Source of the DNA: a virus
Taxonomy: Duplodnaviria > Caudoviricetes
Reading direction: 5' to 3' (one strand)
IMG/VR virus record: IMGVR_UViG_3300020171_000036
Location: 1 to 53,183 of that record
DNA length: 53,183 nt
Each line of letters opens with the position of its first letter. Positions within the stretch are counted from its first letter, which is position 1. The notes beneath the pieces were generated by a model. The model was not told the origin of the DNA. It searched no databases and saw only the letters and a list, made by a program, of their open reading frames with translations. The position numbers and the translations under genes are program-made. Positions 1,342 to 20,465 of the stretch are shown one piece after another.

Positions 1342-1683
1342 TTAAGCATCAGTTATCACCCTTTGCCCCTGTTCCTTAGCCTCATCCACCCAGTTATCAG
1401 GGCGTAGTTGTCTTTTCTGCCCTCTCATCTCGAATACTTTCAGGCTTGATTTTTTATTCATTACCCAATCCCAGATTCTCCTGAATATTGATTTCCTGGC
1501 ATATACGATAAAGCTATCCGCTGAAAATTCATTGCCTGGAATATCAAGATTTAATTCAACTATAGCGTTCTTCAGATTCACACATGGGTAAATAACTCCG
1601 TGTTGTTCTTTGCCATTATCGTCTATAGTGAATAATTTAAAGTTGCCTCTTTTGGTGTTTAACGATGTGATTTTGATTTTCAT
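1342..1683 (-). CDS. hypothetical protein
   Basis: 113 aa ORF with GAGG RBS in the leftward operon. Confidence 0.6.
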   Translation of the reverse strand: MKIKITSLNTKRGNFKLFTIDDNGKEQHGVIYPCVNLKNAIVELNLDIPGNEFSADSFIVYARKSIFRRIWDWVMNKKSSLKVFEMRGQKRQLRPDNWVDEAKEQGQRVITDA

Positions 1684-1732
1684 ATCTATTCCTCTTCAAA
1701 TTTTTTCTTTTCTATTATCGTAAGAGCTCCAT

Positions 1733-2065
1733 TTATATTATTTTATAATGGCCTTTCAGTTTATCAAAGATAAGTTTGTTATATGTTGGAGGATTATCTG
1801 CAGCCGGAAAAATATTTGCTATTCGATATCCCTTGTTCATATATCCTCTCCAAGTCTCATACTTTTTATTTTGCCAAATGTCATACTTTTCTAATTCTAT
1901 ATTTTCTTTTTTTAACTTTTTTATTTCATGTTCTCCAATATAAACAACAATCCAACTCCACGCAGAAAAAGCCCAGACATAAGATTCAACCCAGCGTTCT
2001 AAAAATAGCGCACAAATAAAATTTATTATACAAATAATTATTAATATTATACTTCCAACATACAT
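1733..2065 (-). CDS. hypothetical membrane protein
   Basis: Two N-terminal hydrophobic helices; GAGGAGG RBS. Confidence 0.6.
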   Translation of the reverse strand: MYVGSIILIIICIINFICALFLERWVESYVWAFSAWSWIVVYIGEHEIKKLKKENIELEKYDIWQNKKYETWRGYMNKGYRIANIFPAADNPPTYNKLIFDKLKGHYKII

Positions 2066-2123
2066 AAGCTACCTCCTCATTTTAACTCCTTCTGGAACTG
2101 AATCGAGTCATTTTTATTCATAT

Positions 2124-2408
2124 CTAATATCTCTCTAAAATTCCCTTAACTGCTTTGGCAAACAATGTTTCATTCTGGTCGAAATTATCCCAATGTATGC
2201 TGTCTTTAGTTATATCGAAATCATCAGGAACTTTCTCTTTTCCTATTATTGTATAAACTCCGTCTTCACATTTCTCGGTAATGATTTCTTTAGTTTCAGA
2301 GTCATAATATTGAAGAGTAAAATTTACAAGGGAATCTTCAGTTATATCATCAAGATTACGAAATATAGCGCCAAGCCTTTCTCTTAATTCTTTTAAAGTT
2401 TCCATCAT
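2124..2408 (-). CDS. hypothetical protein
   Basis: Acidic 94 aa ORF coupled to the upstream gene. Confidence 0.6.
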   Translation of the reverse strand: MMETLKELRERLGAIFRNLDDITEDSLVNFTLQYYDSETKEIITEKCEDGVYTIIGKEKVPDDFDITKDSIHWDNFDQNETLFAKAVKGILERY

Positions 2409-2854
2409 GCCTCCCGCTGTGCATTTTCAAGTAATTTATCAACACTTATTTTTAGTTTCTTTGCCATTACAACAAAAGCACGATCAAAAAATCGGCAAGC
2501 CATTATATGTGGTAACTCTGCATACGAAATAGACCTATACCATAAATGCACATTACCCTTAGAATCAACTATTGTTTTTTCCATATCAACGAATTGCAAT
2601 TCAACTTTTATCTGAAATGCAACCTTATCCTCGTCGTTCCAATGCTGATCTTCATTGTTTGCCGCTACTGTCCTACAACAACCCCAGAACAGTTTTAATT
2701 GCTGATATGATCTGGGCTTATCAACTCCATAGGTCTTACATCTAATTAACTGGTTAGGTTTATATTCGTTCCATTTGTCTTGATCTTCCCGGGAGAACGG
2801 GGCGCCGATTTTATCTTGTTTTTGGAGGACGATCTCTTTCATCTTCCCTCGCAA
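2405..2854 (-). CDS. DUF1367/NinB-like recombination-associated protein
   Basis: 'KPRSYQQLKLFW' and 'RSISYAEL...FFDRA' resemble this family; recombination-gene context. Confidence 0.6.
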   Translation of the reverse strand: MRGKMKEIVLQKQDKIGAPFSREDQDKWNEYKPNQLIRCKTYGVDKPRSYQQLKLFWGCCRTVAANNEDQHWNDEDKVAFQIKVELQFVDMEKTIVDSKGNVHLWYRSISYAELPHIMACRFFDRAFVVMAKKLKISVDKLLENAQREA

Positions 2855-3024
2855 TCAACCACAGCGGGTGTTAAATAACGTAGCTCAACAAAAACACCTT
2901 TTCCCCAATGTATATCCTCGCAATCTGTAATGGACACAACTTCGTATTTATCACCAACTTTAGGCAAGTCAGCCATTTGATCGGGATAAATCATAAAGCC
3001 TTTGTTTTTCATATTAATCATCAC
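2839..3024 (-). CDS. hypothetical protein
   Basis: 61 aa ORF overlapping neighbours in the operon. Confidence 0.5.
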   Translation of the reverse strand: MMINMKNKGFMIYPDQMADLPKVGDKYEVVSITDCEDIHWGKGVFVELRYLTPAVVDCEGR

Positions 3025-3355
3025 TCATGCCCACAAACAATGAAAAATATTCCTGCAACAGTAATCCCAATTCTTTTAAGAACTTCTGTGCCTGCTGTGC
3101 CTCGTCCTTACTTAGCTGTGATGGATAGTCCTCTGACCTGCGGAGGAGCGTGTCCATCTTATTTCGTGTGTTTTCAAGGGCGAAATAAGAATTACCAAGT
3201 TTAGTTCTGTAGTCTAAAAATACATCAGGCTCCAAATCTCCCAACAAATAATCTTCTAACTTGTAATCTTTAGGCATATTACACCTCACATTGGGTTTAA
3301 ATCGTTCAGTTTCATATTTATAGTCATCATTCATATCACACCTCATCATAAGCAT
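3014..3355 (-). CDS. hypothetical protein
   Basis: 113 aa ORF in the operon; true start probably slightly downstream. Confidence 0.5.
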   Translation of the reverse strand: MLMMRCDMNDDYKYETERFKPNVRCNMPKDYKLEDYLLGDLEPDVFLDYRTKLGNSYFALENTRNKMDTLLRRSEDYPSQLSKDEAQQAQKFLKELGLLLQEYFSLFVGMSDD

Positions 3356-3899
3356 CTAAGGGTATTTCATCTGTGTTAAAAGCAGTAGAGGCTGGCTCTG
3401 ATATATCCGGCTTCTGTAATATCCTCATGCTCATTTCAGCAAACTCCTCCGCCATTGATTCAAGTGCTTCTATGCCTGTACCCTCCAGCTCATTCTTTAT
3501 CCAAGGCACAAATGCTTGCTGAAGAAATCCGAATTTACACTTACCAAAACTCTCAGCATGAAAATCTCTGCCCTGTGGTTTATTCTGTATAATGGTATCA
3601 GGTGGCTCGGACAATCCTACAGGCTCTTCGCTAACTTTAAGCTCATCTATAGTGTAATTGGTATAAGTTTTGCCGTCTTTCTTTGATACTTCCTGTTTCT
3701 CGCTATACTTCATGTAGCCTATCTTCATTCCCGCGAAAGGCTCTGGCTTCTTACCACTTGTAAAATATAAAAACTTTTTATCATTTCCTTCAAGATAAAT
3801 ATTCCACATTCTCCATGTCCATGTTTTTCCCTTACCATCATTACCTACGCCATCTTTTACATGATACGCCTTTGAAACTGTTTGTCCGTATTTCTCCAT
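3336..3899 (-). CDS. putative single-stranded DNA-binding protein
   Basis: Aromatic/basic beta-rich N-terminus (OB-like), acidic tail DEIPLDAYDEV; near exonuclease. Confidence 0.45.
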   Translation of the reverse strand: MEKYGQTVSKAYHVKDGVGNDGKGKTWTWRMWNIYLEGNDKKFLYFTSGKKPEPFAGMKIGYMKYSEKQEVSKKDGKTYTNYTIDELKVSEEPVGLSEPPDTIIQNKPQGRDFHAESFGKCKFGFLQQAFVPWIKNELEGTGIEALESMAEEFAEMSMRILQKPDISEPASTAFNTDEIPLDAYDEV

Positions 3900-4277
3900 T
3901 TATTCCCCCTTATATTTTAGTAGTTCTTTCTTTCCTGTCTGGTCATAACTATAATAATAAACTGTTTCTTTCTTATTAATAGTATTAGCATCAATCACAG
4001 CTTGAGGCACTCCCCATATAACCGAAAAAGGCCATGTTAATAAGTTCAGAAATCCAAATAACCATTGGTCAGATTCAGTAGTTCCTATGGCAAGGTAGAA
4101 GTTCCCAAAGCCTGGGAGAATATTCAGCGCACCGGCAAGCGCAGGGTGTTTTAGCTGTACTTCAGCCTGAGGTATGCCATAAGACCTTAACTCATTTAAA
4201 GTTGCTCTATCGCTTCGTGAGAGAGTTGCACAGCCTGTTAAAAGTAATATAGCTATAATACAGGTTAGTTTTTTCAT
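3900..4277 (-). CDS. lipoprotein with TM2-like membrane segment
   Basis: Lipobox LLTG-C; 'LNILPGFGNFYL' and hydrophobic hairpin. Confidence 0.65.
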   Translation of the reverse strand: MKKLTCIIAILLLTGCATLSRSDRATLNELRSYGIPQAEVQLKHPALAGALNILPGFGNFYLAIGTTESDQWLFGFLNLLTWPFSVIWGVPQAVIDANTINKKETVYYYSYDQTGKKELLKYKGE

Positions 4278-4294
4278 GGCTTCTCCTTAAATAG

Positions 4295-4320
4295 TATGGC
4301 TTAATCATTTCTTATTCCAA
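4295..4320 (-). repeat. junction repeat copy 1 (TTGGAATAAGAAATGATTAAGCCATA)
   Basis: Reverse complement of 4291-4320 is identical over 30 nt to 14574-14603. Confidence 0.9.
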
Positions 4321-4349
4321 TTAAAGATATACCGGTTTTAAGTGCTGCG

Positions 4350-4583
4350 TTATGCAAATTTTGGCGTTGGCAATGTCTTAATGGCTTCTACGGCTTCAGC
4401 GTACCAGTGTTTAACGGTTGCAAATCCTCCATCTACAGAACCATTTACAAGAACATAGCAATGGTCATTTTCAATGATATGGGATATACCGCCGTGCTCA
4501 TTTTTCAAGGTGGCTACTGGTGTTTCCACACTACCGTTTCGTAAAGTAACTTTTTCATCTGGTGTTTCTTGGATTTTATACAT
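4350..4583 (-). CDS. hypothetical protein
   Basis: 77 aa ORF with AAGGAG RBS between repeat copies. Confidence 0.6.
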   Translation of the reverse strand: MYKIQETPDEKVTLRNGSVETPVATLKNEHGGISHIIENDHCYVLVNGSVDGGFATVKHWYAEAVEAIKTLPTPKFA

Positions 4584-4617
4584 TTTTTAATCTCCTTTCA
4601 TTTTTCTTATAGTATTA

Positions 4618-4634
4618 CTTAATCATTTCTTATT
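4618..4634 (-). repeat. junction repeat copy 2 (AATAAGAAATGATTAAG)
   Basis: 17-nt core match; supplies the stop of ORF 4619-4804. Confidence 0.8.
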
Positions 4635-4804
4635 AGTTTTAATTCTTTGGGGTCTAAACAAAATACAGGTCCACGAAATCCGCAAGCGCACCAAACACCA
4701 TACGAATCCTGATACCCTTCAGGCCCGTGTAATTCATGGCCACAATCTTTTTTAACGTGCGAATATGGACATTTAAATCTCGAATAATCTACTAAATTTT
4801 TCAT
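4619..4804 (-). CDS. small Cys/His-rich protein
   Basis: CPY...CGH...CACG putative zinc binding; ends in the repeat. Confidence 0.6.
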   Translation of the reverse strand: MKNLVDYSRFKCPYSHVKKDCGHELHGPEGYQDSYGVWCACGFRGPVFCLDPKELKLIRND

Positions 4805-4836
4805 GGCTTTCTCTTCTTTACCTAAATAGTTTAAGT

Positions 4837-4858
4837 TGGCTTAATCATTTCTTATTCC
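4837..4858 (-). repeat. junction repeat copy 3 (GGAATAAGAAATGATTAAGCCA)
   Basis: 22-nt exact match; supplies the stop of ORF 4852-5037. Confidence 0.9.
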
Positions 4859-5037
4859 TGCTTATCTTCAAAGTCTTCAAGTGGACACCATTCAGGGAAA
4901 TCTTTAAGCAATCTAAGCGATTTGCTTTTATAAAAACCACAGGGGATAGGCATAAGACGACAACGTAAGTCTAAGCTGGTAAAACTCGCATGATGACATT
5001 CTCGACAGCTTTTAATAAACAATGGTAATATTTTCAT
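4852..5037 (-). CDS. small Cys-rich protein
   Basis: SCRECHH...C...FPEWCPL pattern typical of small phage proteins. Confidence 0.65.
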   Translation of the reverse strand: MKILPLFIKSCRECHHASFTSLDLRCRLMPIPCGFYKSKSLRLLKDFPEWCPLEDFEDKQE

Positions 5038-5050
5038 TTCTTATTCCAGT
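5034..5050 (-). repeat. junction repeat copy 4 (ACTGGAATAAGAAATGA)
   Basis: 17-nt match to 14342-14358; ATGA stop/start overlap. Confidence 0.8.
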
Positions 5051-5195
5051 TATAGTCGTGAAAATGTTCCCATATAGGCGCATCTGTAGGTCTTTCTACC
5101 TCAGCACCACACTCAGGACAGCGGGAATATTTTGTATCTTCGGAGATACCTTCCCACATACATTTAGTGCATACCCATTCGATTTTAGTTGTCAT
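5034..5195 (-). CDS. zinc-ribbon protein (53 aa, not in ORF track)
   Basis: MTTKIEWVCTKCMWEG...RCPECGAEVERP...WNKK*; AAGGA RBS. Confidence 0.6.
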   Translation of the reverse strand: MTTKIEWVCTKCMWEGISEDTKYSRCPECGAEVERPTDAPIWEHFHDYNWNKK

Positions 5196-5232
5196 GGTTT
5201 TTATCCTTTGGGCGCAAATCTTTCAAGGTTAC

Positions 5233-5592
5233 TTATAAATACATTCTTTTTTCTTCTAACATCTTTAGATATTTTATAAACTTCTTAGATACATCTCTTT
5301 CAACAACATCTAAAATACCAGATATAGTTATATTACGCTTATTATCAAGAAATTGTTTTAATTCATAATCAGGTTTAAACCATTCTCCATGTTTACGAAG
5401 ATGCTTAAAATATATATGTAAAACATTCTCTAAATATAGACCACCTTGAACAACTTTTTTTATTGTTAATGGAACTGGCGAGCCAGTTTGCAATGTCTTT
5501 AGTCTGGATTTAGGATTTTTACTTTTGCCTATTTTAAATAATCCGTTTGGTGCTTGAATAAAATATATCTTGTTTTGTTTTGATTTACTCAT
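5233..5592 (-). CDS. GIY-YIG nuclease family protein (T5orf172/MUG113-like)
   Basis: IYFIQ...FKIGKSKNPKSRLKTLQTGSP...E..LH..F...GEWF. Confidence 0.88.
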   Translation of the reverse strand: MSKSKQNKIYFIQAPNGLFKIGKSKNPKSRLKTLQTGSPVPLTIKKVVQGGLYLENVLHIYFKHLRKHGEWFKPDYELKQFLDNKRNITISGILDVVERDVSKKFIKYLKMLEEKRMYL

Positions 5593-5628
5593 AAATTTCG
5601 CTCAAAATCTGGCTTCTCGGATGAATCA

Positions 5629-6483
5629 TCATATCCCCAAGTACACGGAACATACCACGTTGCAACTACAGTACGAAAGACATCTGACAGCTTCACCCTT
5701 ACGTTCTTCTATGTAGTCGCCCTTATTAGCTTCCATCCATGCCTGAGCTTCTACTTCGGTATTTAAGAGCCTGAATGCTGATTTACGATTCTTACCCATT
5801 ACCGCCCATTGGGTTACCTTCTCCCAGCGTTCGTCAAAGGAACAGGGCAATAAGGCATCGTCAGGCGTATTCTCTGCCTCCTGATGCAACCTTACCCTGT
5901 CTTCTATCCATGCCTGAGATTTTTCCAGCGACCATAACGGTATGTCCTGAACTACCACTTGGCATGATGGATAGTTGTGTTCTTTAGCTTTATGCTTAGA
6001 CCAATCACGCAGGAAGTTTACCACTTGCAGTTTTTCAGGACGTATGCCGTTCACTGTCATTAGATATGAGTTTATATTTAGCTGTTGTTCATGTTCAGGT
6101 TTAATTCCTGCAAGAACAGCCCATACACTTGTGATCTTGTAGTCAGATAGGATCTTTGGTATTTCTTCATACAGGTCTATTTTCCCCCCTATTCTCCAGC
6201 CCCAAACTTCTGTATAATATCTTTTTTCTTTAATGCAGTTCGGAGTTTTAATGCGCTCTAAAATATAATGAGTGTTTGAACCTATCAGCTTATAAATGTT
6301 ATCAGAAACGTCTTCATATATCTTATGCCCATGTCTTTTGGTTAACTGTACTATGCGAGGCGGAAGAACTAATGACGTGGTTGATATATTACTATCACCT
6401 GCTGTATAAGTGTCGTTCTCTACCACCGAAACTAAAGGCTCAGGTAAATTATAACGGTTTTTATATTGCATCTTTAATCTCAA
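5629..6483 (-). CDS. Cas4-like PD-(D/E)XK exonuclease
   Basis: G..TH..LE, GKIDLYE...DYKITS, QLNINSYL, C-terminal CxxxCxxxxxC cluster. Confidence 0.8.
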   Translation of the reverse strand: MRLKMQYKNRYNLPEPLVSVVENDTYTAGDSNISTTSLVLPPRIVQLTKRHGHKIYEDVSDNIYKLIGSNTHYILERIKTPNCIKEKRYYTEVWGWRIGGKIDLYEEIPKILSDYKITSVWAVLAGIKPEHEQQLNINSYLMTVNGIRPEKLQVVNFLRDWSKHKAKEHNYPSCQVVVQDIPLWSLEKSQAWIEDRVRLHQEAENTPDDALLPCSFDERWEKVTQWAVMGKNRKSAFRLLNTEVEAQAWMEANKGDYIEERKGEAVRCLSYCSCNVVCSVYLGI

Positions 6484-6511
6484 CTCCTGTAAAATTACGC
6501 TTATGCTATAT

Positions 6512-6790
6512 TTACTTATTACTTTTTCTTTTTATAAGTTCTTCTTCAAAATAATCAATAAATAGGTTTGTAGGGCTTTTAAGAACATTATCTAATTCTT
6601 GTTCAAAAGCGTAATTTGCCATATCACCATTTGGTGGCTCACAGGTCAGATAGAAAGACAGGGTTTCGTGTGAAATAAATCCTTTTTCTAAAAGCATATT
6701 TAAGGCGTTTTTTATATGCGATGTTTCCATATTTTTTATTTCTTTTTGCCTGCCGTCTTTAGTTGTCCATATTTTAGTCTGTTTTCTCAT
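6512..6790 (-). CDS. hypothetical phage protein
   Basis: WTTKDG...I.NMETSHIKNAL motif common in phages. Confidence 0.65.
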   Translation of the reverse strand: MRKQTKIWTTKDGRQKEIKNMETSHIKNALNMLLEKGFISHETLSFYLTCEPPNGDMANYAFEQELDNVLKSPTNLFIDYFEEELIKRKSNK

Positions 6791-7037
6791 TTATCCCCAC
6801 CATAGTTGTAAGCCTTTTATGTTGTATAAATCTGCGTATCTTTTGCATTTCTGCCGCTGTGTATAACACCCCAATCTCGGTCAATTCTTTTGCGAGTAGT
6901 TCCGCAACTTCGAGGTCATTATCTGTGTAAGGATACTGCGCCTGTTGCGGAATTATCTGCCCTGCCCCGATTGCCTCTGGAAAAAGGTTCTTCAGGTCGT
7001 TAATTGCCTGTTCTTTTAGATATGTTGCTAAGTCCAT
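6774..7037 (-). CDS. hypothetical protein
   Basis: 87 aa ORF with AGGAGG RBS. Confidence 0.6.
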   Translation of the reverse strand: MDLATYLKEQAINDLKNLFPEAIGAGQIIPQQAQYPYTDNDLEVAELLAKELTEIGVLYTAAEMQKIRRFIQHKRLTTMVGINEKTD

Positions 7038-7045
7038 AATGCCTC

Positions 7046-7270
7046 CTATCCATCAATGTCTAAAATATCTGGTTTAATTTTACCCATTCCCTCTTTTGCT
7101 TTAAGAAGGGCGTTTTCAAAAGTAGGCGCAGAAAAATGACCAAACTCTTGAAGATAAATATCGCATATAATTTCTATTTCTCCAATATTGTGCCGATTCA
7201 TTTCATACGAAACACAGAAATATTTATCGGTCATCTTTTCAACTTCTTCATAAACCTCTTGGATTTTCAT
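7046..7270 (-). CDS. hypothetical protein
   Basis: 74 aa ORF with AAGGA RBS. Confidence 0.55.
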   Translation of the reverse strand: MKIQEVYEEVEKMTDKYFCVSYEMNRHNIGEIEIICDIYLQEFGHFSAPTFENALLKAKEGMGKIKPDILDIDG

Positions 7271-7458
7271 TTTGTAAATTCCTTTCCTTCGCCAAATAAT
7301 TTAGCAGGAACGTCCACCCAATAATTACTAAATACTGTAACCTCGCCATCTTTTTCTGCCGAGACTATGTATTCTTTGCCCTTTTTTAATTCCAAACAAT
7401 TACCTGCGTCATCTTTAATATCAACATTTTTAGTGCATATTCTTTTAAATGTTTGCAT
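7267..7458 (-). CDS. hypothetical protein, first gene of the leftward operon
   Basis: 63 aa ORF with AAGGT RBS. Confidence 0.55.
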   Translation of the reverse strand: MQTFKRICTKNVDIKDDAGNCLELKKGKEYIVSAEKDGEVTVFSNYWVDVPAKLFGEGKEFTK

Positions 7459-7470
7459 CTTTTACCTTTA

Positions 7471-7518
7471 GGGGGCGGGGTTAAAGATTTAATTGGAGGT
7501 AAGACATTGCCCGCCCCC
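7471..7518 (-). promoter_or_regulatory. GC-rich stem-loop in the leader of the leftward operon
   Basis: GGGGGCGGG (7471-79) pairs with CCCGCCCCC (7510-18). Confidence 0.5.
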
Positions 7519-7610
7519 GATGATTTTATCACTTAGCATAGTTTATTTTTAATTGCAAGAACTTTTTTTCATCTGGCAATAAATATTTTCCTTGACTTTT
7601 ACTTTGGTTT

Positions 7611-7838
7611 ATGATAGGCATTGTTGAAAGGAGATATAAACCATTGAACACACTCGCAAAATATAAAAAGAAACATAGGCTTACACTAACACAAATGGCA
7701 AAGAAAGCAAAGGTAACACCGAGCACTTTGTTCAAACACATTAATAATCAGCGTGCTATTCATTCGAGTATTATTATAAAATACATAAAGGCTTTTGATA
7801 TTCCAGCGCATGAACTTTTAAAGATAAAAATGACTTAA
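7611..7838 (+). CDS. Cro/XRE-like helix-turn-helix regulator
   Basis: LTLTQMAKKAKVTPSTLFKHIN; first gene of the divergent rightward operon. Confidence 0.75.
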   Translation: MIGIVERRYKPLNTLAKYKKKHRLTLTQMAKKAKVTPSTLFKHINNQRAIHSSIIIKYIKAFDIPAHELLKIKMT

Positions 7839-7839
7839 G

Positions 7840-8127
7840 ATGATAGAAATTAAAATCAACGCACTGCGGGGCATACCACCTGGTATCAGAAAAAGGAGAA
7901 TAATGAATAATCCATCAAAGCCTAAGCCACGCAGACCCATTAAAACAGATATTCTGGAAAAACTTCTCTGCGAGGGGAAACAACACTATTCAAAAGTAAT
8001 GGATCTGCTCAAGGTTTTTCCTGAAAGCATAGAATTGCTGGAAAAAGAAACTCAAATGGAAAATATCATTAATCAATTAAAAAAACAACTTCAGGTTAGA
8101 AATGAGAAGAATAAGAACAAATATTGA
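7840..8127 (+). CDS. hypothetical protein
   Basis: ORF; likely start at MNNPSK after AAGGAG. Confidence 0.5.
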   Translation: MIEIKINALRGIPPGIRKRRIMNNPSKPKPRRPIKTDILEKLLCEGKQHYSKVMDLLKVFPESIELLEKETQMENIINQLKKQLQVRNEKNKNKY

Positions 8128-8252
8128 GGGCTAAATGAAAAGCGGATGCGTTAAAGGTGGCGATCATGAGTGGGGCGTCGAGGGTACGCATCAAAACGAA
8201 TATTGTAAAAAATGCTTTGTTTCAAAACCGTACCACTGAACTATAATGTTAG

Positions 8253-8486
8253 GTGACTAAAATGGCAAAAAAAGGAATACAACGAGCATTGGACTTCGCA
8301 CGGCAAAAAGTTAATGAAACAATAAAAATGAATGCCCGAAGTTCATTGGCTTATGGTAATGGGGCAATGGCGGGAGAAGGTTATAATGGTGGATATTTAG
8401 CGGCACTAAATGATGTTGACCAAGCCATGAATGGATCGCCACCCTTACATAGCAGATTTTGGCCGAAGCCGAAGGATAAGCCATGA
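8253..8486 (+). CDS. hypothetical protein
   Basis: 77 aa ORF ending in the GAAGGATAAGCCATGA repeat. Confidence 0.6.
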   Translation: MTKMAKKGIQRALDFARQKVNETIKMNARSSLAYGNGAMAGEGYNGGYLAALNDVDQAMNGSPPLHSRFWPKPKDKP

Positions 8487-8762
8487 CTGAAGAGCATAAA
8501 TTACATAAATTACATACACATCCACAACTTGAGAAAAAGCTTGGATTAAGTCCAGAATATGTAATTATAGATACGGAAACATTCCAATATTTAAAGTGAG
8601 GGCGAAATGATAGATAACTTTCGTGAAATTTACAATGAAGTTCTTAGCCGCTATGAAAGTTTGGAAAAACTTATTTTAAACTCCAAAGAAGTCAGGATGT
8701 TTGTTTATGAAATATGTGAACATTGTATAGAAGCAGAGTATAAGAAAACTAAAGAGAACTAA

Positions 8763-8963
8763 ATGAAAATTATAACCAAAGACAAAAATATTCAATTCAT
8801 GCCAGAGCATGATAAAGATTGTTTCGATCTGGGATGTTTTGCGATACAAGTAGGGGAGATATTAAACATGACGTCTAACACAGACAAACCGATGCCCAAA
8901 ATCAATTTAATGGAAATAACGACAGATGAATTGTGGGCATTTATTGTGACTAAGGTTTTGTGA
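8763..8963 (+). CDS. hypothetical protein
   Basis: 66 aa ORF in the small-gene array. Confidence 0.55.
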   Translation: MKIITKDKNIQFMPEHDKDCFDLGCFAIQVGEILNMTSNTDKPMPKINLMEITTDELWAFIVTKVL

Positions 8964-8973
8964 GGGGGATTAA

Positions 8974-9183
8974 ATGAGAACTTCAGAAGAATTAGACGAC
9001 ATTATAGACAAGGTGAAACGCAATGACATTGTGTGTGATAGCATAAACAGATGCAAAGGCTGGGAGCAGAGTTATGAGCAGATTATGGAAATGATAGAAG
9101 ACTCAGCGTATGAATATACAGGCTTGCCTTTTCGATTCTGCCCGTTCTGCGGAAGTAAGATAATCTGGAAGGATAAGCCATGA
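8974..9183 (+). CDS. small zinc-finger protein
   Basis: FRFCPFCGSKI motif; GAGGGG RBS. Confidence 0.6.
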   Translation: MRTSEELDDIIDKVKRNDIVCDSINRCKGWEQSYEQIMEMIEDSAYEYTGLPFRFCPFCGSKIIWKDKP

Positions 9184-9500
9184 CCAAGAACAGAAAGATA
9201 AAATTAAAGCATCAATCGACCTTGTGACTGATAGTTTAAACAATCTATACAGTCAAGAATATAAGTTAGAAAAAACAATCAAATTATTGTCAGTTTGGCT
9301 GTCTGTGGCAGGAGACTATTGCAAAGAAGTGGCGGAAGAATTAAAGAAACGCTGAGGTGGCGATATATGAAGAGGAAAAACTCAAAGGTGAACTATGATA
9401 TTAGCTAAATGCAAAGACTGCGGCAACCTTTTCTATGCTGCTGTAATGGGCGAGGTTGGTTGCCCGAAGTGCGGTACTAAGAATACTTGTGTAGCGATAT

Positions 9501-9824
9501 ATGAAGAACCCAAGAACGAAGGTAAATAATTTTATAGGTTGGGAGGTTTATGGAATACGTTGAGGCAATCGGGAGAAACCCAGGGGAAGAATTACAGCAT
9601 TCTCATTTATATGCTGTTGACGAAACACACAATTATATTCCAATGTGTATTTATGGCTGGAATCGTAGCGATGGTAAACGATTATCAATTTTTCGTGGAC
9701 ATAGTGGAGCGAAGGGTCTTTGTAAGATATGCGAAAAACGAGCTAATGCAGGATTATCGCCAGTAAAATCTGAAAATGCACAGCATAAAACAAAATGGTT
9801 ATAATGAAGAACCCAAGAACGAAG
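9501..9824 (+). repeat. 21-bp direct repeat ATGAAGAACCCAAGAACGAAG at 9501-9521 and 9804-9824
   Basis: Exact copies flanking ORF 9550-9804. Confidence 0.85.
9550..9804 (+). CDS. hypothetical protein
   Basis: 84 aa, GGAGG RBS, H/C residues. Confidence 0.65.
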   Translation: MEYVEAIGRNPGEELQHSHLYAVDETHNYIPMCIYGWNRSDGKRLSIFRGHSGAKGLCKICEKRANAGLSPVKSENAQHKTKWL

Positions 9825-9861
9825 CCAGATGATAACTCTTAACAGTTTAAAAGGAGGCTAT

Positions 9862-10014
9862 ATGAAATATAAAATTGGTGATCTGGTAGCAGATGAAGAT
9901 GGGAACTCTGGTATTGTATGTATTAAATGGGATGATGGCGATCTGTGCGAGCTTGAGAATGATGCAGCACACCCCAACCCGATTATTGTAGGGGAGTGGC
10001 CTCCTGAAAAGTGA
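9862..10014 (+). CDS. small SH3-like hypothetical protein
   Basis: AAGGAGG RBS before MKYKIGDLV...CIKWDDG. Confidence 0.55.
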   Translation: MKYKIGDLVADEDGNSGIVCIKWDDGDLCELENDAAHPNPIIVGEWPPEK

Positions 10015-10194
10015 TTTATGAAAAAAATAGACATTATTACAAACTGTTTAGAATGTTCATGGTTTGTTGTGACTAAGAATTTCTGTGGACTCTCGCAGAG
10101 AACAATCATTTTAGACGGCGGTGGGTTTCCTAATTGGTGTCCATTGCCAGATGCGACTAACCCAGCAGAAGAACCTGAAGCCAGATAATAAATC

Positions 10195-10223
10195 TTGACA
10201 TAAGTTTATAAGTAGGATAGGGT
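10195..10223 (+). promoter_or_regulatory. sigma70-like promoter
   Basis: TTGACA-17 nt-TAGGGT. Confidence 0.55.
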
Positions 10224-10291
10224 AGTGGAAAGGATAAAATTCTATGAGAAGAAGTCTCGGCTCTCAAATAATCACATTTAAAAATAGAAAT

Positions 10292-10355
10292 GGCGTTTTG
10301 ACAATCAGACAGCGCAATGCTGTTTGTGAAGACCGAGACCTTCAGTCAAAGCGCC
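10292..10355 (+). ncRNA. C4/CI-like antisense RNA candidate
   Basis: Outer stem GGCGTTTTGAC/GTCAAAGCGCC, two inner hairpins, loop ACCGAGAC complementary to upstream GTCTCGG (10254-60). Confidence 0.5.
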
Positions 10356-10387
10356 TTTTGTGTTTTTAAGCGAGGTTGATATTATGA

Positions 10388-11386
10388 TTGAAAGGAATGT
10401 TTATGGAATTAATTAAATGGAATAAAGCAAAGCAAGCTATTATTGAAGCTAAAACGATTGATGAGATAAAAGACATACGAGATAAGGCACAAGCTATGAA
10501 AGCCTATGCAAAGCAAATAGGTGAATCGCTTGAAGTACAGAACGATATTGCCGAAATTAAGATTAGGGCAGAGCGTAGAGCTGGTGAGATATTACAAGAA
10601 ACCGAAAAAGCAAAAGGTTCTGATTATGCTGGAAGATTAGATTTAGATGGTAACAGAGTGTTACCGTCTAACCCACCACCCACACTTGAAGAAATAGGTA
10701 TTACTAAAATTCAATCTTCACGTTGGCAAGCAACTGCAAGTTTGCCAGAAGATGTTTTTGAAAAACATATTGTTGAAACTAAAGGCGGTGGAAAAGAGCT
10801 TACAAGTTCAGGTGTTTTAAAAATAGCTTTAAAAGAAAAAAAGGCTCAAGAAAAAGAGGAATTAAAAGAAAATCCAATACAATTACCAGCCAACAAATAC
10901 AATGTTTTATTGTGTGATCCGCCCTGGGAATATAGAAATACTGGTTTTGAAATGAGTGCCGAAGGCCAATATTCAACTATGAGTATTGAAGAATTGCAAA
11001 CATTAAAAATTGAAGATTTGGCTTATGAAAATTCTATTATGTTTATGTGGGCTACAAATCCACTTTTAAAAGAAGCTATTGAGCTTTTGGAGTATTGGGG
11101 TTTTAATTATAAAACTAATTTTGTTTGGATTAAAACACGTCATACTGCTGGCTTCTATGTTTATGGCCAACATGAATTATTGTTAATAGGTGTTCGTGGA
11201 AGCATGTTGCCAATGGGAGAAAAATATAAAAGTATAATTCAAGGAGAAAATATAAAACATAGCAAAAAACCAGACATTGTGTATGAAATAATTGAAACTA
11301 TGTATCCACAAGCAAAATATTTAGAATTATTTCATCGTGGCATTAAGAGGAAAAATTGGGAGGGATGGGGTTTTGAGAGCGAATAA
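10388..11386 (+). CDS. MT-A70 family adenine methyltransferase
   Basis: DPPW motif, FMWATNP, WGFNYKTNFVWIK, HSKKP, LELF. Confidence 0.9.
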   Translation: MKGMFMELIKWNKAKQAIIEAKTIDEIKDIRDKAQAMKAYAKQIGESLEVQNDIAEIKIRAERRAGEILQETEKAKGSDYAGRLDLDGNRVLPSNPPPTLEEIGITKIQSSRWQATASLPEDVFEKHIVETKGGGKELTSSGVLKIALKEKKAQEKEELKENPIQLPANKYNVLLCDPPWEYRNTGFEMSAEGQYSTMSIEELQTLKIEDLAYENSIMFMWATNPLLKEAIELLEYWGFNYKTNFVWIKTRHTAGFYVYGQHELLLIGVRGSMLPMGEKYKSIIQGENIKHSKKPDIVYEIIETMYPQAKYLELFHRGIKRKNWEGWGFESE

Positions 11387-11894
11387 AAATTATAATGGTA
11401 GTTTAATGGAAGCTGGTAAAATAGCAGAGGAAATTGTCTTTAAATGGCTTAAAGAAAATCCTTATGGAAAAGAAGTTATAGATACCAGAGAATTTAGATT
11501 TTCACAAAGACTTGATGTTGATTGTGGTATAGAAGATATGCACGGCAGGATTGTTTTAGGAGAAATTAAATCTGATAAGTGGCTTGGTAAATCACAAAAC
11601 ATTCTTTTTGAAACCAACAGAATTAATCATTTTGTACCGCCATATTTTTATTTAGGTTGGGGATGGCGATCCCCAGCGGAGCGTCTTTATTATTATTCTC
11701 CACATCTAAATGCAATATATGTTTTTAAATTTACTGAATTAAGAAAACAAATAGGGATTATTATTAGCCAAACATCTCCAGAAATACTTCACGGTTGGAT
11801 AAAAATAGTTACAACCGATAAGCAAAAAACTACTTTTAATTTTGTTATTCCAGAAGAGTTATTAATAAACTGTTTTAAAATATACAAATTATAG
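11337..11894 (+). CDS. PD-(D/E)XK nuclease-like protein
   Basis: G..AE, DVD...GEIKSD, NILFE, GW...S.A..L.YY. Confidence 0.6.
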   Translation: MALRGKIGRDGVLRANKNYNGSLMEAGKIAEEIVFKWLKENPYGKEVIDTREFRFSQRLDVDCGIEDMHGRIVLGEIKSDKWLGKSQNILFETNRINHFVPPYFYLGWGWRSPAERLYYYSPHLNAIYVFKFTELRKQIGIIISQTSPEILHGWIKIVTTDKQKTTFNFVIPEELLINCFKIYKL

Positions 11895-11905
11895 AGTGTT
11901 AAATT

Positions 11906-12637
11906 ATGGCTAAAGGACGCATGTTACAGAATCGTATTTCTAAGAGCCAAAAGTTAGCCAGTCTTTCTAATGACACAGTTCGCCTTCTTTATACCTGGCT
12001 ACTTTCACACCTCGACATTAACGGCAATTTTTATGCTGATCCTGTAATGGTTAACAATTTGGTTTTCACTCGGCTTGGACATTCTGTTAAAACAATTTCC
12101 AACTCACTTGATGAAATGGCAGAAAAAGGATTGATTGTAAGGTATAAGATTAATGGTGAGGTTTACCTTAACTACCCTGATTTTAACGAAAAACAACCTG
12201 CCTTAAACCCTGCGAGAGAAACAACTCCTGAAATTCCTAATATAACTCAAGAGTCAATCTTACATGACGCAAGCGTTACTCCTGCACAAATTAAGATAAG
12301 TAAAGATAATATATATAACGTCAAAAACAGCGTCAAAAAAAAAGAGCATGACGCAAACCTTGAACAGAGTTTTACAGAATTTTGGAATGCCTACCCCAGA
12401 AAGGTAAATAAAAAAGAAGCTAAGCAAAAATGGTTTAAAGCTAAATTACCTAACCTTTCCATTATTTTAAAAGCTCTTGCAATACAAAAACAATCCGAGT
12501 CATGGCAAAAAGACGGTGGTAAATATATACCACATCCAACCACATGGTTGAATCAAGAACGTTGGAACGATGAAATAACTATTGAGAGAATAGAACCAAA
12601 CGGATATCAGCCACCATTGGAGGAAATCTTAGCATAA
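11906..12637 (+). CDS. phage replication initiator
   Basis: N-terminal wHTH-like region; FTEFWNAYPRKVNKKEA and YIPHPTTWLNQERWNDE; upstream of DnaB. Confidence 0.85.
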   Translation: MAKGRMLQNRISKSQKLASLSNDTVRLLYTWLLSHLDINGNFYADPVMVNNLVFTRLGHSVKTISNSLDEMAEKGLIVRYKINGEVYLNYPDFNEKQPALNPARETTPEIPNITQESILHDASVTPAQIKISKDNIYNVKNSVKKKEHDANLEQSFTEFWNAYPRKVNKKEAKQKWFKAKLPNLSIILKALAIQKQSESWQKDGGKYIPHPTTWLNQERWNDEITIERIEPNGYQPPLEEILA

Positions 12638-13995
12638 TGGATGAATTATACAAAGTTCCTCCGCAGAACCTACCCTATGAAGAAAGTATTATCGCTGGAT
12701 GTTTGTTGTTTCCCGATGTTTGCGAAGAAACCTTAGACATTCTAACACCAGAAGACTTTTATAAAACAGCTCATCAAAAAATATACAAAGCCATTCTCGA
12801 TTTAAAATTCAAAAAAGAACCTGTTGATTTATTAACTGTTTCTGAAAAATTAAAATCACTTAAAACGCTTGAGGATTGTGGGGGAGCTTATTATTTAACT
12901 AAATTAACAGATGAATGCCCAGTCCCAACACATACTGGGCATACCATTCAAAAAATAAGAGAATGCGCTGTTTTAAGAAAAACCATTGAGATTTGCAGTA
13001 ACACAATTCAAAATTGTTTTAATCTTGAGGATGAACCAGAGAAGGTTATAGACCAATTCCAAACTGATGCTTTAAAAATAGATATAAAAGTTAAAACTGA
13101 GAGTTATATAAGTTTAAAGCAACTTATTATGGAAGGCGAGGATCGGCACGAGCTTATTTATAATAATAAATCAAACATAACTGGTATGCCTGCCGGATTT
13201 AAAGATATTGATGCTGTTACTTGTGGCTTTCAAAAGGGTGATTTAATTATAATAGCTGCGCGGCCATCCATGGGAAAAAGTGCTTTGATGCGGGCAATGA
13301 GCATTAATATGGCTAAAGCGGGTTTTTGTAATTTAATAATTTCCTTGGAAATGTCGAAAGAACAGCTTTGCGATACTATTATTTCAAGCGAAAGCGGAAT
13401 AAATTCAGTTAAATTTAGAAATGGATTTTTTTCAAAAGAAGATTGGATAATTAAAACAGAAGCATCAAGCCGATTGTATGAACTAAATAGTTTTCTTATA
13501 GATAAAGATTGTTTTAGGTTGTTAGATATTTGCCGGATAGCCAGAAGGTTAAAAAAGAAAGAAGATATAGGGGCTGTTTTTATTGATTATTTACAATTAA
13601 TTGAAGGGGATCAGTCAAAGAAAAAGAATTATGAAATTGGCGAAATATCCAGACGATTGAAAATATTAGCAAAAGAGCTTGAAATACCAATAATTTTATT
13701 AAGCCAGTTAAATCGTAAATGCGAAGAAAGAACTGACAAAAGACCACTACTTGCAGATTTGAGGGATTCGGGTTCGATAGAGCAAGATGCCGATATTATA
13801 ATGTTTATATATAGGCATGAAGAATATTTAAGAAAAAAATACCATGAAGACGGCTCAAAAACAGATGAAATGGAAAAATGGGAGGGTAGGGCGGAGCTGA
13901 ATATAGCTAAGCAGAGGATGGGGCCAACACGTCGAGTGAATCTGACGTGGTTAAAAAAGATTGTAACATTTAAGGATGCAACACATGACACATGA
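12637..13995 (+). CDS. dnaB: replicative DNA helicase
   Basis: AARPSMGKS, SLEMS, IDYLQL, LSQLNR, DLRDSGSIEQDAD, KQRMGP. Confidence 0.97.
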   Translation: MDELYKVPPQNLPYEESIIAGCLLFPDVCEETLDILTPEDFYKTAHQKIYKAILDLKFKKEPVDLLTVSEKLKSLKTLEDCGGAYYLTKLTDECPVPTHTGHTIQKIRECAVLRKTIEICSNTIQNCFNLEDEPEKVIDQFQTDALKIDIKVKTESYISLKQLIMEGEDRHELIYNNKSNITGMPAGFKDIDAVTCGFQKGDLIIIAARPSMGKSALMRAMSINMAKAGFCNLIISLEMSKEQLCDTIISSESGINSVKFRNGFFSKEDWIIKTEASSRLYELNSFLIDKDCFRLLDICRIARRLKKKEDIGAVFIDYLQLIEGDQSKKKNYEIGEISRRLKILAKELEIPIILLSQLNRKCEERTDKRPLLADLRDSGSIEQDADIIMFIYRHEEYLRKKYHEDGSKTDEMEKWEGRAELNIAKQRMGPTRRVNLTWLKKIVTFKDATHDT

Positions 13996-14341
13996 AAAGC
14001 CCATAAGAGAAACAGATAAAGACTATCTTGCATACATAAAATCTCAGCCATGCTTGGTATTGAATAGCGAATGTATCGGGGATATAGTAGCACATCATAC
14101 ACTTAGTCGTGGGTCAGGTGGATCTGATTATGGGGCGGTTTGTTTGTGTATGAACCACCACAATAACGTGCATTCTCTGGGCAAAAAAACCTTTCAAGAA
14201 CTATATAATATTAATTTTAATAAGGAAATCATACGGTTATTAGTTGGCTATATAAAAAAGATAAAGTGCAATAAAGCAAATAAAACGAGAAAAGCCATAG
14301 AAAAAGCCCGGTCCGATTCTGAAAGCTGGTCCCGGATATAA
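13976..14341 (+). CDS. DUF968/HNH-like nuclease
   Basis: YLAYIKSQPCLV...AHHT...SDY..V.LC..HH..VH..G..TF. Confidence 0.7.
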   Translation: MQHMTHEKPIRETDKDYLAYIKSQPCLVLNSECIGDIVAHHTLSRGSGGSDYGAVCLCMNHHNNVHSLGKKTFQELYNINFNKEIIRLLVGYIKKIKCNKANKTRKAIEKARSDSESWSRI

Positions 14342-14603
14342 ACTGGAATAAGAAATGATTAAGCCATAGGAGTTGAGGAGAAACAGTCGTCCTAAAAAAT
14401 CGGACAACTGGAATAAGAAATAATATGGAGGAGTGGCGGAATTGGCAAGAAGTTATTTTGATAAATATGCTTGTCATTGATAGACGTATCGGAATTTAAA
14501 GCTGAAGCAGCCCTCGACTTATAATCGAGTTTTCCTAAAGATGCAGGTTTGAATCCAGCCTCCTCCAACCAAATTGGAATAAGAAATGATTAAGCCATAC
14601 TAT
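14342..14603 (+). repeat. junction repeat copies 5-7 (14342-14368, 14406-14421, 14574-14603)
   Basis: TGGAATAAGAAAT(GATTAAGCCATA) three times, flanking a short spacer and the tRNA-like element. Confidence 0.9.
14426..14571 (+). ncRNA. expanded tRNA-like RNA (UAU anticodon-like loop)
   Basis: Acceptor TGGAGGAG/CTCCTCCA + ACCA, D-arm-like GGCGGAATTGG, T-arm GCAGG-TTTGAAT-CCAGC, hairpin CTCGA-CTTATAA-TCGAG. Confidence 0.65.
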
Positions 14604-15728
14604 GAAACAGCAGAAGGCAGTATTTACTGCGGTGATGCTCTGGAGGTATTAAAGAGTATGGAGGATAAAAGTTGCCAGTCGGTGATTACAAGTCCTCCAT
14701 ACTGGTGATGAGGCTTACGAGACTATGAAACTGCTACATGGGAAGGTGGGGATAGTGATTGCAAACATACAATAAGTAGTGGAGATACTGACCCAAAAAA
14801 GATTGGGCAGGAACGAGTTTTTCGTGGCAATAGAAGTGTATGTAGGAATTGCGGGGCTAAAAGAATAGACAATCAACTCGGTCTTGAAAAAACTCCTGAA
14901 GAATATGTCGAAAAAATGGTTGAGGTGTTTAGTGAGGTTAGAAGAGTATTGAAAGATAATGGGACTGTTTGGCTGAATTTGGGGGATAGCTACTTGAGTG
15001 ATGGTAAAAAAGAAATGTCGGTAAAAATAGGGAGTGGAATACAAGCAGATCAACGGGCAAAGAATGAAAACTATAAAGATACAACACCGTCAAGAAATGC
15101 TCGATATTATAAGAATACTAATTTAAAAAGAAAAGACCTTGTAGGCATTCCCTGGCGAGTAGCCTTTGCCCTTCAAGCTGACGGCTGGTATCTCAGGCAG
15201 GACATAATCTGGGCAAAACCGAATCCGATGCCCGAAAGCGTAACAGACAGATGCACTAAAGCACATGAGTATATATTTTTACTGAGCAAGAATGCTAAGT
15301 ATTATTATAATGCTGAGGCGATAAAAGAGCCATTCGTAGACAATAGAATGGGAAATCCTATGGGTGGGGGGCAATATGCGACAGATGCCTTTAAATTATT
15401 AGGAACTCAACATGGTCTCGCAAAGGGCAAATGGAATGAAGATGGAGAAATAATTGGCAGGAATAAACGCTCGGTCTGGACAGTAACCACCAAGCCATAT
15501 AAGGAAGCGCATTTCGCAACATTTCCAATAGCTCTTATAGAACCATGTATATTAGCAGGAACAGATAAAGGAGATACAATACTCGACCCGTTCTTTGGAG
15601 CAGGCACGACAGGCGTGGCAGCTTATAAGCATGACAGGAAGTTTGTAGGTATCGAATTAAATCCTGAGTATGTAGAGATAGCGGCCAAGCGTATAGAAGC
15701 AGAAGCAAGCCAGTTAAAGCTGTTTTAA
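14586..15728 (+). CDS. N4/N6 DNA methyltransferase (beta class) interrupted by in-frame TGA-TGA; recoded gene or pseudogene
   Basis: MIKPYYE..GDALEVL..VITSPPYW**GLRDY...in frame with ORF 14916-15728 (WLNLGDSY, IIWAKPNPMPES, HFATFP, DPFFGAGTT). Confidence 0.8.
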
Positions 15729-15830
15729 GGGGGCTGAGAGACTCAAGGTTCAACTTTAACTTGGAGGGGCATAGGTAGGTAAGGGGGTAATAATATGTCC
15801 TCATTGTGGAGTAAAATTTGGGATTAAATA

Positions 15831-20068: not shown

Positions 20069-20465
20069 AAAAACTAAAGTTGGAGGACAACCAGGGAACA
20101 AGAACAGGGAAATATACACACTTGAAGTGGCGTTCGACCTATTTGAGAAAGCTAAGGATATATTAGTTATTGATAAAAATATTATTACAGAGACAGAATT
20201 AATGGTTAAATGTAAATATGAGTTATCATTACCGATGTCATCTTATTTATATCTAAGAGACGAGAAATTCCCCATCGAATTAGAAGACTATAAAAAAGAA
20301 ATTGAGTCAATCCTTGAATCACGGGTTATGAGATGTAAGGAAATGTATCCAGGTATAGCTGCTATGACGTTAAAGAACAAGCATCGTTGGAAAGACCAGC
20401 AGGACATTAACCAAAACATTAAACTACCACCAGGGTTAAAGGTGTCTTTTGGTGCAGAAGAATAA
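20058..20465 (+). CDS. terS: terminase small subunit
   Basis: GGQPGNKN N-terminus, LKNKHRWKDQQ C-terminus, directly upstream of TerL. Confidence 0.75.
   Translation: MAGKKTKVGGQPGNKNREIYTLEVAFDLFEKAKDILVIDKNIITETELMVKCKYELSLPMSSYLYLRDEKFPIELEDYKKEIESILESRVMRCKEMYPGIAAMTLKNKHRWKDQQDINQNIKLPPGLKVSFGAEE

Follow-up and report, generated by a model that had tools for sequence, protein, structure and literature searches.

A frame-independent gene-junction motif in a tailed phage genome and in other phage and metagenome contigs

Introduction

Whether the mosaic genomes of phages arise from exchange at conserved linkers or from random joins that are subsequently sieved by selection is an old question. 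The present study concerns a motif of about 30 nucleotides (nt), (TT)GGAATAAGAAATGATTAAGCCATACTAT, that lies at gene boundaries in the IMG/VR virus record IMGVR_UViG_3300020171_000036 (Duplodnaviria; Caudoviricetes). The window analyzed here is this entire record, a linear sequence of 53,183 bases with 38.8% G+C and a completeness estimate of 74%, in which seven copies of the motif are found in two divergent clusters of early genes, co-oriented with the genes. Based on these copies and those in other contigs, the motif looks like a common joint for exchanging small genes, several of which are anti-restriction genes, at more than 100 junctions of a groundwater phage community.

Among the systems described to date, the motif appears to work most like the promoter-early stem-loops (PeSLs) of T4-type phages and in appearance is closest to the start-associated sequences (SAS/ESAS) of cluster K mycobacteriophages. 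PeSLs, which consist of a sigma-70 promoter and a stem-loop terminator, have been proposed to act by homologous recombination between copies with the modular shuffling of variable regions, and small circles arise when neighboring copies recombine (Arbiol et al., 2010, PMC2839356; Comeau et al., 2014, PMC4122927). Similar to the PeSLs as outlined in these reports, the motif is a short conserved junction repeat in variable regions of small unknown genes, includes an upstream stop and a downstream start, and marks points of insertion, deletion, or replacement between relatives, with the pairing of flanks being taken here from short-read assemblies. However, both parts that define PeSLs in these outlines, the promoter and the stem-loop, are absent from the motif according to scans and folding, and the motif is instead a translational joint with stops in three frames, an ATG that is used, and one half that is methylase coding sequence. 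It is also common to otherwise unrelated contigs, and the window phage has a lambdoid-style rather than a T4-type organization.

Regarding SAS, a 13-bp sequence with an AGGAG core located 3-7 bp before the start codon, a role in translation initiation has been proposed (Pope et al., 2011, PMC3203893). As portrayed there, SAS share with the motif an asymmetric repeat in one orientation at the start codons (mostly ATG) of different gene families in a non-structural region, and the upstream stop is sometimes inside the repeat. In contrast, the 13-bp AGGAG consensus is absent from the motif, which has only a weak GGA eight bases before its ATG, and reassortment at SAS sites is not reported in the passages of PMC3203893 considered here. 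With a length of about 30 nt, the motif is also longer; it takes in the start codon together with the first five codons and has stops in three frames.

A stoperator is also the operator at the early lytic promoter, where it is bound by the immunity repressor. In lysogens, the 13-bp stoperators of cluster A phages are bound by the repressor and stop elongation (PMC9283540, PMC6550527). As summarized in these sources, they resemble the motif in that one asymmetric site is repeated many times in short intergenic spaces, with its copies following the direction of transcription. In contrast, no repressor link was found for the motif, which has no copy at the early control region of the window and is partly coding. 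The attC sites of integrons are defined by structure, as imperfect inverted repeats that fold as single strands. Although integrons (PMC9892861) resemble the window in having single-gene cassettes arrayed between copies of a recurring site, no integrase was seen among the genes scanned here, the motif is unfolded, and its primary sequence is conserved, with the left half varying without matching changes in the right half. With PeSLs as one documented type of linker, the motif would represent a second type, which tolerates any upstream frame, supplies the next start, and is derived from a methylase gene.

Results and Discussion

Copies of the motif in the window

A first-pass annotation made from the letters of the window alone had placed seven copies at gene boundaries in two oppositely oriented clusters, and this arrangement is seen in the sequence, with four copies in the leftward block and three in the rightward block, each oriented like its flanking genes.

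4291-4322, minus strand: copy 1, full, with the exact 22-mer and a 32-nt inverted match to copy 7
4609-4636, minus strand: copy 2, degenerate (CTAATAAGAAATGATTAAGTAATACTAT), with 2 mismatches in the 23-mer used below for the metagenome scan
4837-4865, minus strand: copy 3, with the exact 22-mer
5034-5051, minus strand: copy 4, left half only (AACTGGAATAAGAAATGA), with the exact 12-mer
14340-14368, plus strand: copy 5, with the exact 22-mer
14406-14424, plus strand: copy 6, left half only, with the exact 12-mer
14572-14603, plus strand: copy 7, with the exact 22-mer; its ATG at 14586 is the start codon of a methylase gene

The exact 22-mer GGAATAAGAAATGATTAAGCCA is present four times (4297-4318 and 4837-4858 on the minus strand, 14345-14366 and 14576-14597 on the plus strand) versus none in 100 dinucleotide-preserving shuffles. 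The exact 12-mer GGAATAAGAAAT is present six times, which adds 5036-5047 (minus) and 14410-14421 (plus) to the 22-mer sites, and allowing one mismatch yields two more matches (33737 and 41814), both within genes and at chance level, for a total of 8 against 0.98 expected. The outermost copies, which had been described as identical over 30 nt, are identical, and over 32 nt (4291-4322 and 14572-14603, 100% complementary as an inverted match), this being the longest identity. All copies in the window are confined to early, accessory regions.

The left half of the motif, TTGGAATAAGAAATGA, contains TAA and TGA stops as well as the ATG, and its right half, ATT AAG CCA TAC TAT, includes a TAA in the third frame. 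The ORF (open reading frame) list bears out the earlier observation that three small ORFs end inside the motif in three different frames: ORF 4852-5037 ends with QE at the TAA at 4854-4852 in copy 3 (the TAA of GGAATAA), ORF 5034-5195 ends with WNKK at the TGA at 5036-5034 in copy 4, and ORF 4619-4804 ends with IRND at the TAA at 4621-4619 in copy 2 (the TAA of ATTAAG). The motif ATG was also correctly recognized as the start of ORF 4852-5037 (5037-5035, overlapping the preceding TGA as ATGA) and, at 14586, of the methylase frame MIKPYYETAEGSIYCGD, which begins MIKPYY.

Between copy 1 and the Shine-Dalgarno sequence and ATG of a downstream lipoprotein-like gene (3900-4277) there are 14 nt, copy 2 precedes the Shine-Dalgarno sequence and start codon of ORF 4350-4583, and the gene after copy 3 is ORF 4619-4804. 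Copy 5 lies directly 3' of the stop of a DUF968/HNH-like gene and opens a mini-ORF of four codons, MIKP, before a stop, and copy 6 is immediately 5' of a tRNA-like element, an arrangement that is the same in contigs L039 and L053.

Occurrence beyond the window

Contigs labeled L with a number are viral (IMG/VR) or metagenome contigs that were found by motif scans, and all are short-read assemblies. In the scan of viral contigs, the 22-mer identified one other contig, L007, and a 17-mer added L024; 28 of the 30 loci found with the 17-mer were rejected as coding matches in unrelated phages, with the true element being present in L007 and L024 only. In the parts compared, neither contig has a protein in common with the window, and the match is limited to 30-32 nt. 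L007 is a 43,424-nt record with a completeness estimate of 5%, and its only two motif copies flank one small G+C-rich ORF of 47 codons. Judging from this arrangement, the unit resembles one transferred cassette: over 197 nt, L007 is 97.5% identical here to a cassette of L055, a contig to which it is otherwise unrelated.

The scan of metagenome records with the 23-mer AAGAAATGATTAAGCCATACTAT yielded 51 contigs under three record-name prefixes, two of which are the same records as L007 and L024. The window and 145,524 nt of contigs together contain 69 exact and 56 near copies (1-6 mismatches) of this 23-mer, and in the contigs with at least two copies, all copies are on one strand in 28 of 29, with a median spacing of 272 nt. 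The 336 ORFs of the contigs fall into 246 families, 198 of which are singletons. Representative bacterial genomes gave no match to the 23-mer and six single, scattered, chance-like matches to a 19-mer. Relatives of the window DnaB helicase in viral contigs were limited to one locus, at 37% identity and without the motif. Parts of the window were contained in 16 runs from 10 studies, labeled as groundwater metagenomes, only one of which has at least half of the sampled words; no RNA run was among the 16.

For a set of 106 copies from the window and contigs (14-nt core, at most one mismatch, ATG kept), the conserved positions, counted from the G of the ATG, extend from approximately -12 to +23, and nothing is conserved upstream of -13; since the 23-mer had served as bait for the contigs, this profile is inflated between -7 and +15. 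A core that is near-invariant over about 19 nt, copies that follow gene direction in nearly every multi-copy contig, and confinement in the window to early and accessory regions may also point to a primarily regulatory site, namely, an operator, a stoperator-like roadblock, or a translational operator in mRNA, to which a phage or host factor would bind for the joint control of early or anti-restriction genes, with shuffling as a by-product. Such a site would span the translation start, where a translational repressor would bind, in an unstructured stretch, and precedents are found in cluster K SAS (PMC3203893) and cluster A stoperators as these are described in the sources above. We nevertheless regard this explanation as unlikely: no common regulator gene was found, some contigs with the motif have no protein in common with the window over the parts compared, and the control region 7459-7610, adjacent to the HTH gene, contains no copy with up to 6 mismatches. 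Moreover, the left half varies with the upstream gene and shows no co-varying two-fold symmetry, and methylase coding sequence accounts for the right half. A regulatory function does not exclude the linker explanation, with which it is compatible.

Stops, starts, and the methylase origin of the joint

The motif is a frame-independent gene junction, as is evident from its anatomy, its stops in three frames, the use of its ATG, and its methylase-derived right half. An upstream ORF with at least 40 open codons stops inside the motif in 64 of the 106 copies, and all three frames are used, with one stop position each: the TAA at -6 in 20, the TGA at +1 in 36, and the TAA at +5 in 12. The frame independence that the first-pass annotation had deduced from three ORFs thus extends to the larger set. 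The motif ATG opens an ORF of at least 60 aa in 27 copies and a frame that runs off the contig end in 8, while in 65 it opens a mini-ORF, mostly of 13, 4, or 8 codons, after which a gene starts within 160 nt, in 52 of these 65 with a Shine-Dalgarno-like sequence; no gene was called for the remaining six. The stop of the mini-ORF falls within -25 to +10 nt of the next gene start in 38 of the 65. The left half is present alone, as a stop-plus-start module, in 20 of 78 copies, approximately 13 of which are at the starts of real genes or tRNA-like elements, including copies 4 and 6 of the window.

Two types of PF01555 methylase begin at the motif ATG, as do PAPS-reductase proteins of PF01507, with the domain starting at residue 15, a Lar restriction-alleviation protein of PF14354, with the domain starting at residue 7, and a protein of 63 aa that belongs to no known family; all have MIKPYYE at their N terminus. 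In a search of public data with one methylase, M(I)KPYYE..GKLYHGDC was the ordinary N terminus of the methylase family; PYY is found within the first 25 residues in 34 of the 120 best homologues, and 12 and 10 of the 120 start with MIKPYYE and MKPYYE, respectively. Since this N terminus is normal in the methylase family, the right half of the motif is, on this comparison, methylase coding sequence that now also heads other genes or sits unused ahead of them, an origin that had not been foreseen from the window alone. In L038, L042, L054, L061, L071, and L087, foreign genes are preceded by longer methylase stubs, of 25-85 nt.

The downstream edge of the conserved block is variable, lying at 14 nt in 16 and at 18-20 nt in 39 of 101 copies and at other stub lengths in the rest, and the divergence of many downstream sequences sets in sharply, following either CCATA or CTAT. 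These sharp points, together with the array of single-gene units bounded by a conserved site, may suggest integron-like attachment sites, in line with the analogy that had originally been drawn. Such sites would be cut and joined at a fixed point by a dedicated recombinase that, with the record about 74% complete, could be encoded in the missing quarter of the genome, and integrons and attC sites have been reported in phages (PMC9892861). This mechanism was not upheld and is highly improbable. No integrase or other site-specific recombinase was found in the 76 window ORFs (PHROG) or the 46 early-region ORFs (Pfam), and no integrase in 66 contig proteins of the cassette families. Folding of the motif copies as single-stranded DNA gave minimum free energies of -0.2 to -2.2 kcal/mol (z -1.0 to +0.8), no better than shuffles, which ruled out a hairpin of the attC type; primary sequence rather than structure is conserved, stubs of many other lengths exist, and the site lies within the coding sequence of real genes.

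The position of the motif before many genes is also what a promoter, or a PeSL-type promoter with a terminator, would show, and HNH, T5orf172, endonuclease VII, and PD-(D/E)XK genes are common in the contigs carrying it, two nuclease genes adjoining the window clusters (DUF968/HNH and T5orf172), so that it might alternatively be the target of a neighboring nuclease, the cut triggering repair from a co-infecting phage. We consider both extremely improbable. Consensus scans called neither a sigma-70-like promoter nor a terminator-like hairpin at any of the seven window copies, and with nothing conserved upstream of -13, a putative -10 element in the methylase genes would fall after the start codon. 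Some units have their own TTGACA-type box after the motif (L050, L051, and L070). A supposed resemblance to the promoters used by phage-type RNA polymerases was set aside, as no RNA polymerase gene was found among the 76 window ORFs in the PHROG scan.

Apparent reassortment at the motif

The test that the first-pass annotation had set, that gene content should vary beside a conserved motif, was borne out in the contigs carrying it. The flanks that abut the motif fall into 85 clusters among 106 upstream flanks and 65 clusters among 102 downstream flanks, counts that are independent of assembler pairing because words bridging the motif and each single flank must exist in the reads. Among the 99 copies with both flanks, the clusters with at least two members always join different partners (12 of 12 upstream and 16 of 16 downstream). 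For example, the gene that follows one particular upstream gene end is PAPS-reductase-like in L039, a methylase gene in L079, and a different gene in L074, and L043, L045, and L083 have a common upstream flank that is followed by two methylase types and an unrelated gene.

Matches between contigs also end at the motif: 168 of 752 internal ends (22%) lie within 15 nt of a motif center versus 3% for random positions, and only 3 of 206 matches of at least 150 nt cross a motif. L048 and L049, which have different record-name prefixes, are 99.9% identical over 3,055 nt starting exactly from the motif and unrelated upstream. The cassette genes of the window show the same pattern, in that their homologues have different neighbors in other contigs and the matches end at motifs: 4837-5048 recurs in L059 (96%) and L041 (99%), 5034-5221 in L050, and 3902-4320 in L085, and L063 is 97% identical to the window helicase, yet has other units downstream.

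Some of these patterns could also be left by passive scars, i.e., 5' stubs of methylase genes that remained after replacement or deletion and have no present role, with much of the apparent reassortment being due to assembly mis-joins. The methylase origin of the right half and the 25-85-nt stubs before other genes are consistent with such an origin, as is the finding that none of 100 junctions recurs. On the other hand, independent truncations predict broad stub lengths rather than the peaks found at 14 and 18-20 nt, the stop-bearing left half is also conserved and occurs alone as a start module, stops of all three frames are in use, and the 85 and 65 distinct flanks do not depend on pairing. 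Metagenome assemblers generally use large word sizes, which would exceed the length of the 23-32-nt repeat. We therefore judge scars without a function to be quite improbable.

A composite linker as the proposed mechanism

The explanation that we favor, and hold to be rather probable, is that the motif is a composite linker of about 30 nt that combines a translational stop/restart joint with a short perfect homology for cassette exchange. An upstream gene in any frame would terminate within 6 nt of the motif ATG, and termination this close to the ATG means that ribosomes could restart there; the product of this restart would be either the downstream protein itself or a mini-ORF of 4-17 codons that ends beside the Shine-Dalgarno sequence and ATG of the next gene. 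Many junctions have an identical central stretch of 19-32 nt, which otherwise unrelated phages also share, and the motif therefore offers a patch of perfect homology on which phage annealing recombinases may exchange, insert, or delete motif-gene-motif units in a co-infection, with every product of the exchange being expressible at once. Homologous recombination as the mechanism, actual translational coupling, and the retention of the motif for these roles are what we infer from the sequences.

The variable downstream edge, with modes at 14 and 18-20 nt and longer stubs, is better explained by homologous exchange on a short patch than by cutting at a fixed point. For the lambda Red and RecET proteins, a few tens of bases of homology are sufficient, and genes for annealing recombinases are present in the contig set (RecT with YqaJ and SSB in L049, and ERF in L065).

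Several points weigh against the composite linker. PHROG and Pfam scans of the window ORFs revealed no annealing protein, only an exonuclease, and recombination at the motif is deduced from sequence comparisons, no event having been observed. Homologous exchange alone cannot explain how new genes first entered at the sharp edges of 14 and 18-20 nt, and a near-invariant core could equally result from binding by a putative factor. The pairing of upstream and downstream flanks across the identical 23-32-nt core rests on short-read assemblies, and the absence of any of 100 junction windows from a second contig is odd for stable genomes under three record-name prefixes; this non-recurrence could reflect mis-joins, a dereplicated collection, or extreme diversity. 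Logan contigs from four runs of four studies also have joints at motif positions (14383 to 14580; the methylase 3' end back to 14574; 5149/14574 on "opposite strands"; and a skip 4320/4819), and because their shorter sides are only 21-33 nt, they settle neither the pairings nor an inversion or deletion.

A more far-reaching proposal, which we put forward tentatively and consider rather unlikely, is that the motif is an actively maintained, community-wide "plug-and-play" adaptor, a standard stop/restart joint born from the start of a methylase gene. Through it, phages that share a habitat but are unrelated would trade anti-restriction and orphan genes in a form ready for expression, perhaps at a rate increased by a nuclease or annealing system directed to the motif. 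If true, it would be a natural case of the linker sequences once proposed for phage mosaicism. As the genes headed by the motif ATG include methylases, PAPS-reductase-type proteins, and Lar, the motif may speed the turnover of counter-defence genes. It also provides a concrete short sequence for measuring exchange rates and translational coupling.

Small genes, tRNA-like RNA, and the methylase between the copies

The units between the copies had been described as single small genes or a tRNA-like RNA. The units themselves are as described, and the label "tRNA-like" is weak by ARAGORN and Rfam. On the left, copies 1-4 split five small genes, and the tRNA-like unit and methylase lie on the right.

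5034-5195, minus strand: small cassette gene
4852-5037, minus strand: small cassette gene
4619-4804, minus strand: small cassette gene
4350-4583, minus strand: small cassette gene
3900-4277, minus strand: small cassette gene, lipoprotein-like
14427-14566, plus strand: tRNA-like RNA unit of 140 nt between copies 6 and 7, with an acceptor-like stem, a T-arm, and a variable insert
14586-15728, plus strand: N6/N4 DNA methylase (PF01555), beginning at the motif ATG

None of the five small genes (3900-5195) matched a PHROG at E of 1e-5 or below, and ORF 5034-5195 gave one sub-threshold Pfam match to a zinc ribbon.

The tRNA-like unit, which ends in A-CCA right before the motif, is present in eight copies of 140-220 nt in the window and contigs, the others being in L042 (two), L053, L055, L056, L065, and L069. 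Compensatory changes are found in both of its stems (GCAGG/CCTGC, GCTGG/CCAGC, and GTAGG/CCTAC; G1:C to A1:T), and the variable insert is closed by a GACAAG/CTTGTC stem. ARAGORN at default settings called no tRNA in the window or in 52 loci, and the Rfam tRNA model scored 14427-14566 at 18.5 bits, below its gathering score of 29 bits; at gathering scores, Rfam found nothing in the whole window. A tmRNA identity was rejected: relaxed ARAGORN called four of the eight copies, but the "tag" peptides were mutually unrelated.

A second recurring junction module, (AATAT)GGGAGTTGAGGAGAAATG, consists of a strong Shine-Dalgarno sequence and a start, and is often located 3' of the motif in many contigs. 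After copy 5, the stretch 14369-14405 contains this Shine-Dalgarno module without a start codon, followed by a hairpin pairing 8 of 9 bp (approximately 14385-14411), and this block is also present in L053.

Regarding the methylase, its frame contains an in-frame TGA TGA at 14706-14711, between SPPYW and GLRDY, which resembles a 6-nt insertion relative to L043 (SPPYFGLRDY), and Logan contig joints end at 14712 and start at 14706; the gene may be a pseudogene, contain a readthrough site, or represent a variant. It is also a mosaic, in that identity to L043, L058, and L054 is 94-98% over the first 85 nt or so, identity to L043 is 84% over the last 269 nt, and the middle is only 48% identical at the protein level (14579-14670 and 15456-15724 compared). 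In L054, the window-like 5' part of the methylase runs into unrelated sequence.

Genome layout of the window

PHROG and Pfam scans revealed a lambdoid-style gene layout, in which the two motif clusters lie within the leftward block of small genes and the rightward early block. A megablast of 3800-15800 against 50,697 phage records yielded no match.

Left end of the window: endolysin and holin (PHROG/Pfam)
1342-7458, minus strand: leftward block of small genes, including the exonuclease and T5orf172 nuclease-like gene
5233-5592, within the leftward block: T5orf172 nuclease-like gene
5629-6483, minus strand: exonuclease (PHROG match, phrog_2139)
7459-7610: divergent control region, beside the HTH gene
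7611-7838: HTH gene, at the strand switch
Rightward block, plus strand: MT-A70 methylase, replication initiator, DnaB helicase, DUF968/HNH-like gene, and N6/N4 methylase
12637-13995, in the rightward block: DnaB helicase
13976-14341, plus strand: DUF968/HNH-like gene (DUF968 by Pfam)
3' of the rightward early block: terminase, portal, major head protein, and tail genes (PHROG/Pfam)

The exonuclease is a possible part of a phage recombination function, with a putative tie to the motif.

Several HNH genes are dispersed across the genome. The large terminase (20449-22623, 724 aa) and the portal protein (26997-30137, 1,046 aa) are both oversized; portal profiles match the latter at residues 5-448 and 808-1027, and its middle part, residues 423-818, matches "terminase large subunit" PHROGs, which suggests that this terminase-like part may be an inserted element. 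A single frame is open from approximately 44081 to 53182, comprising more than 3,000 codons and running off the end of the window.

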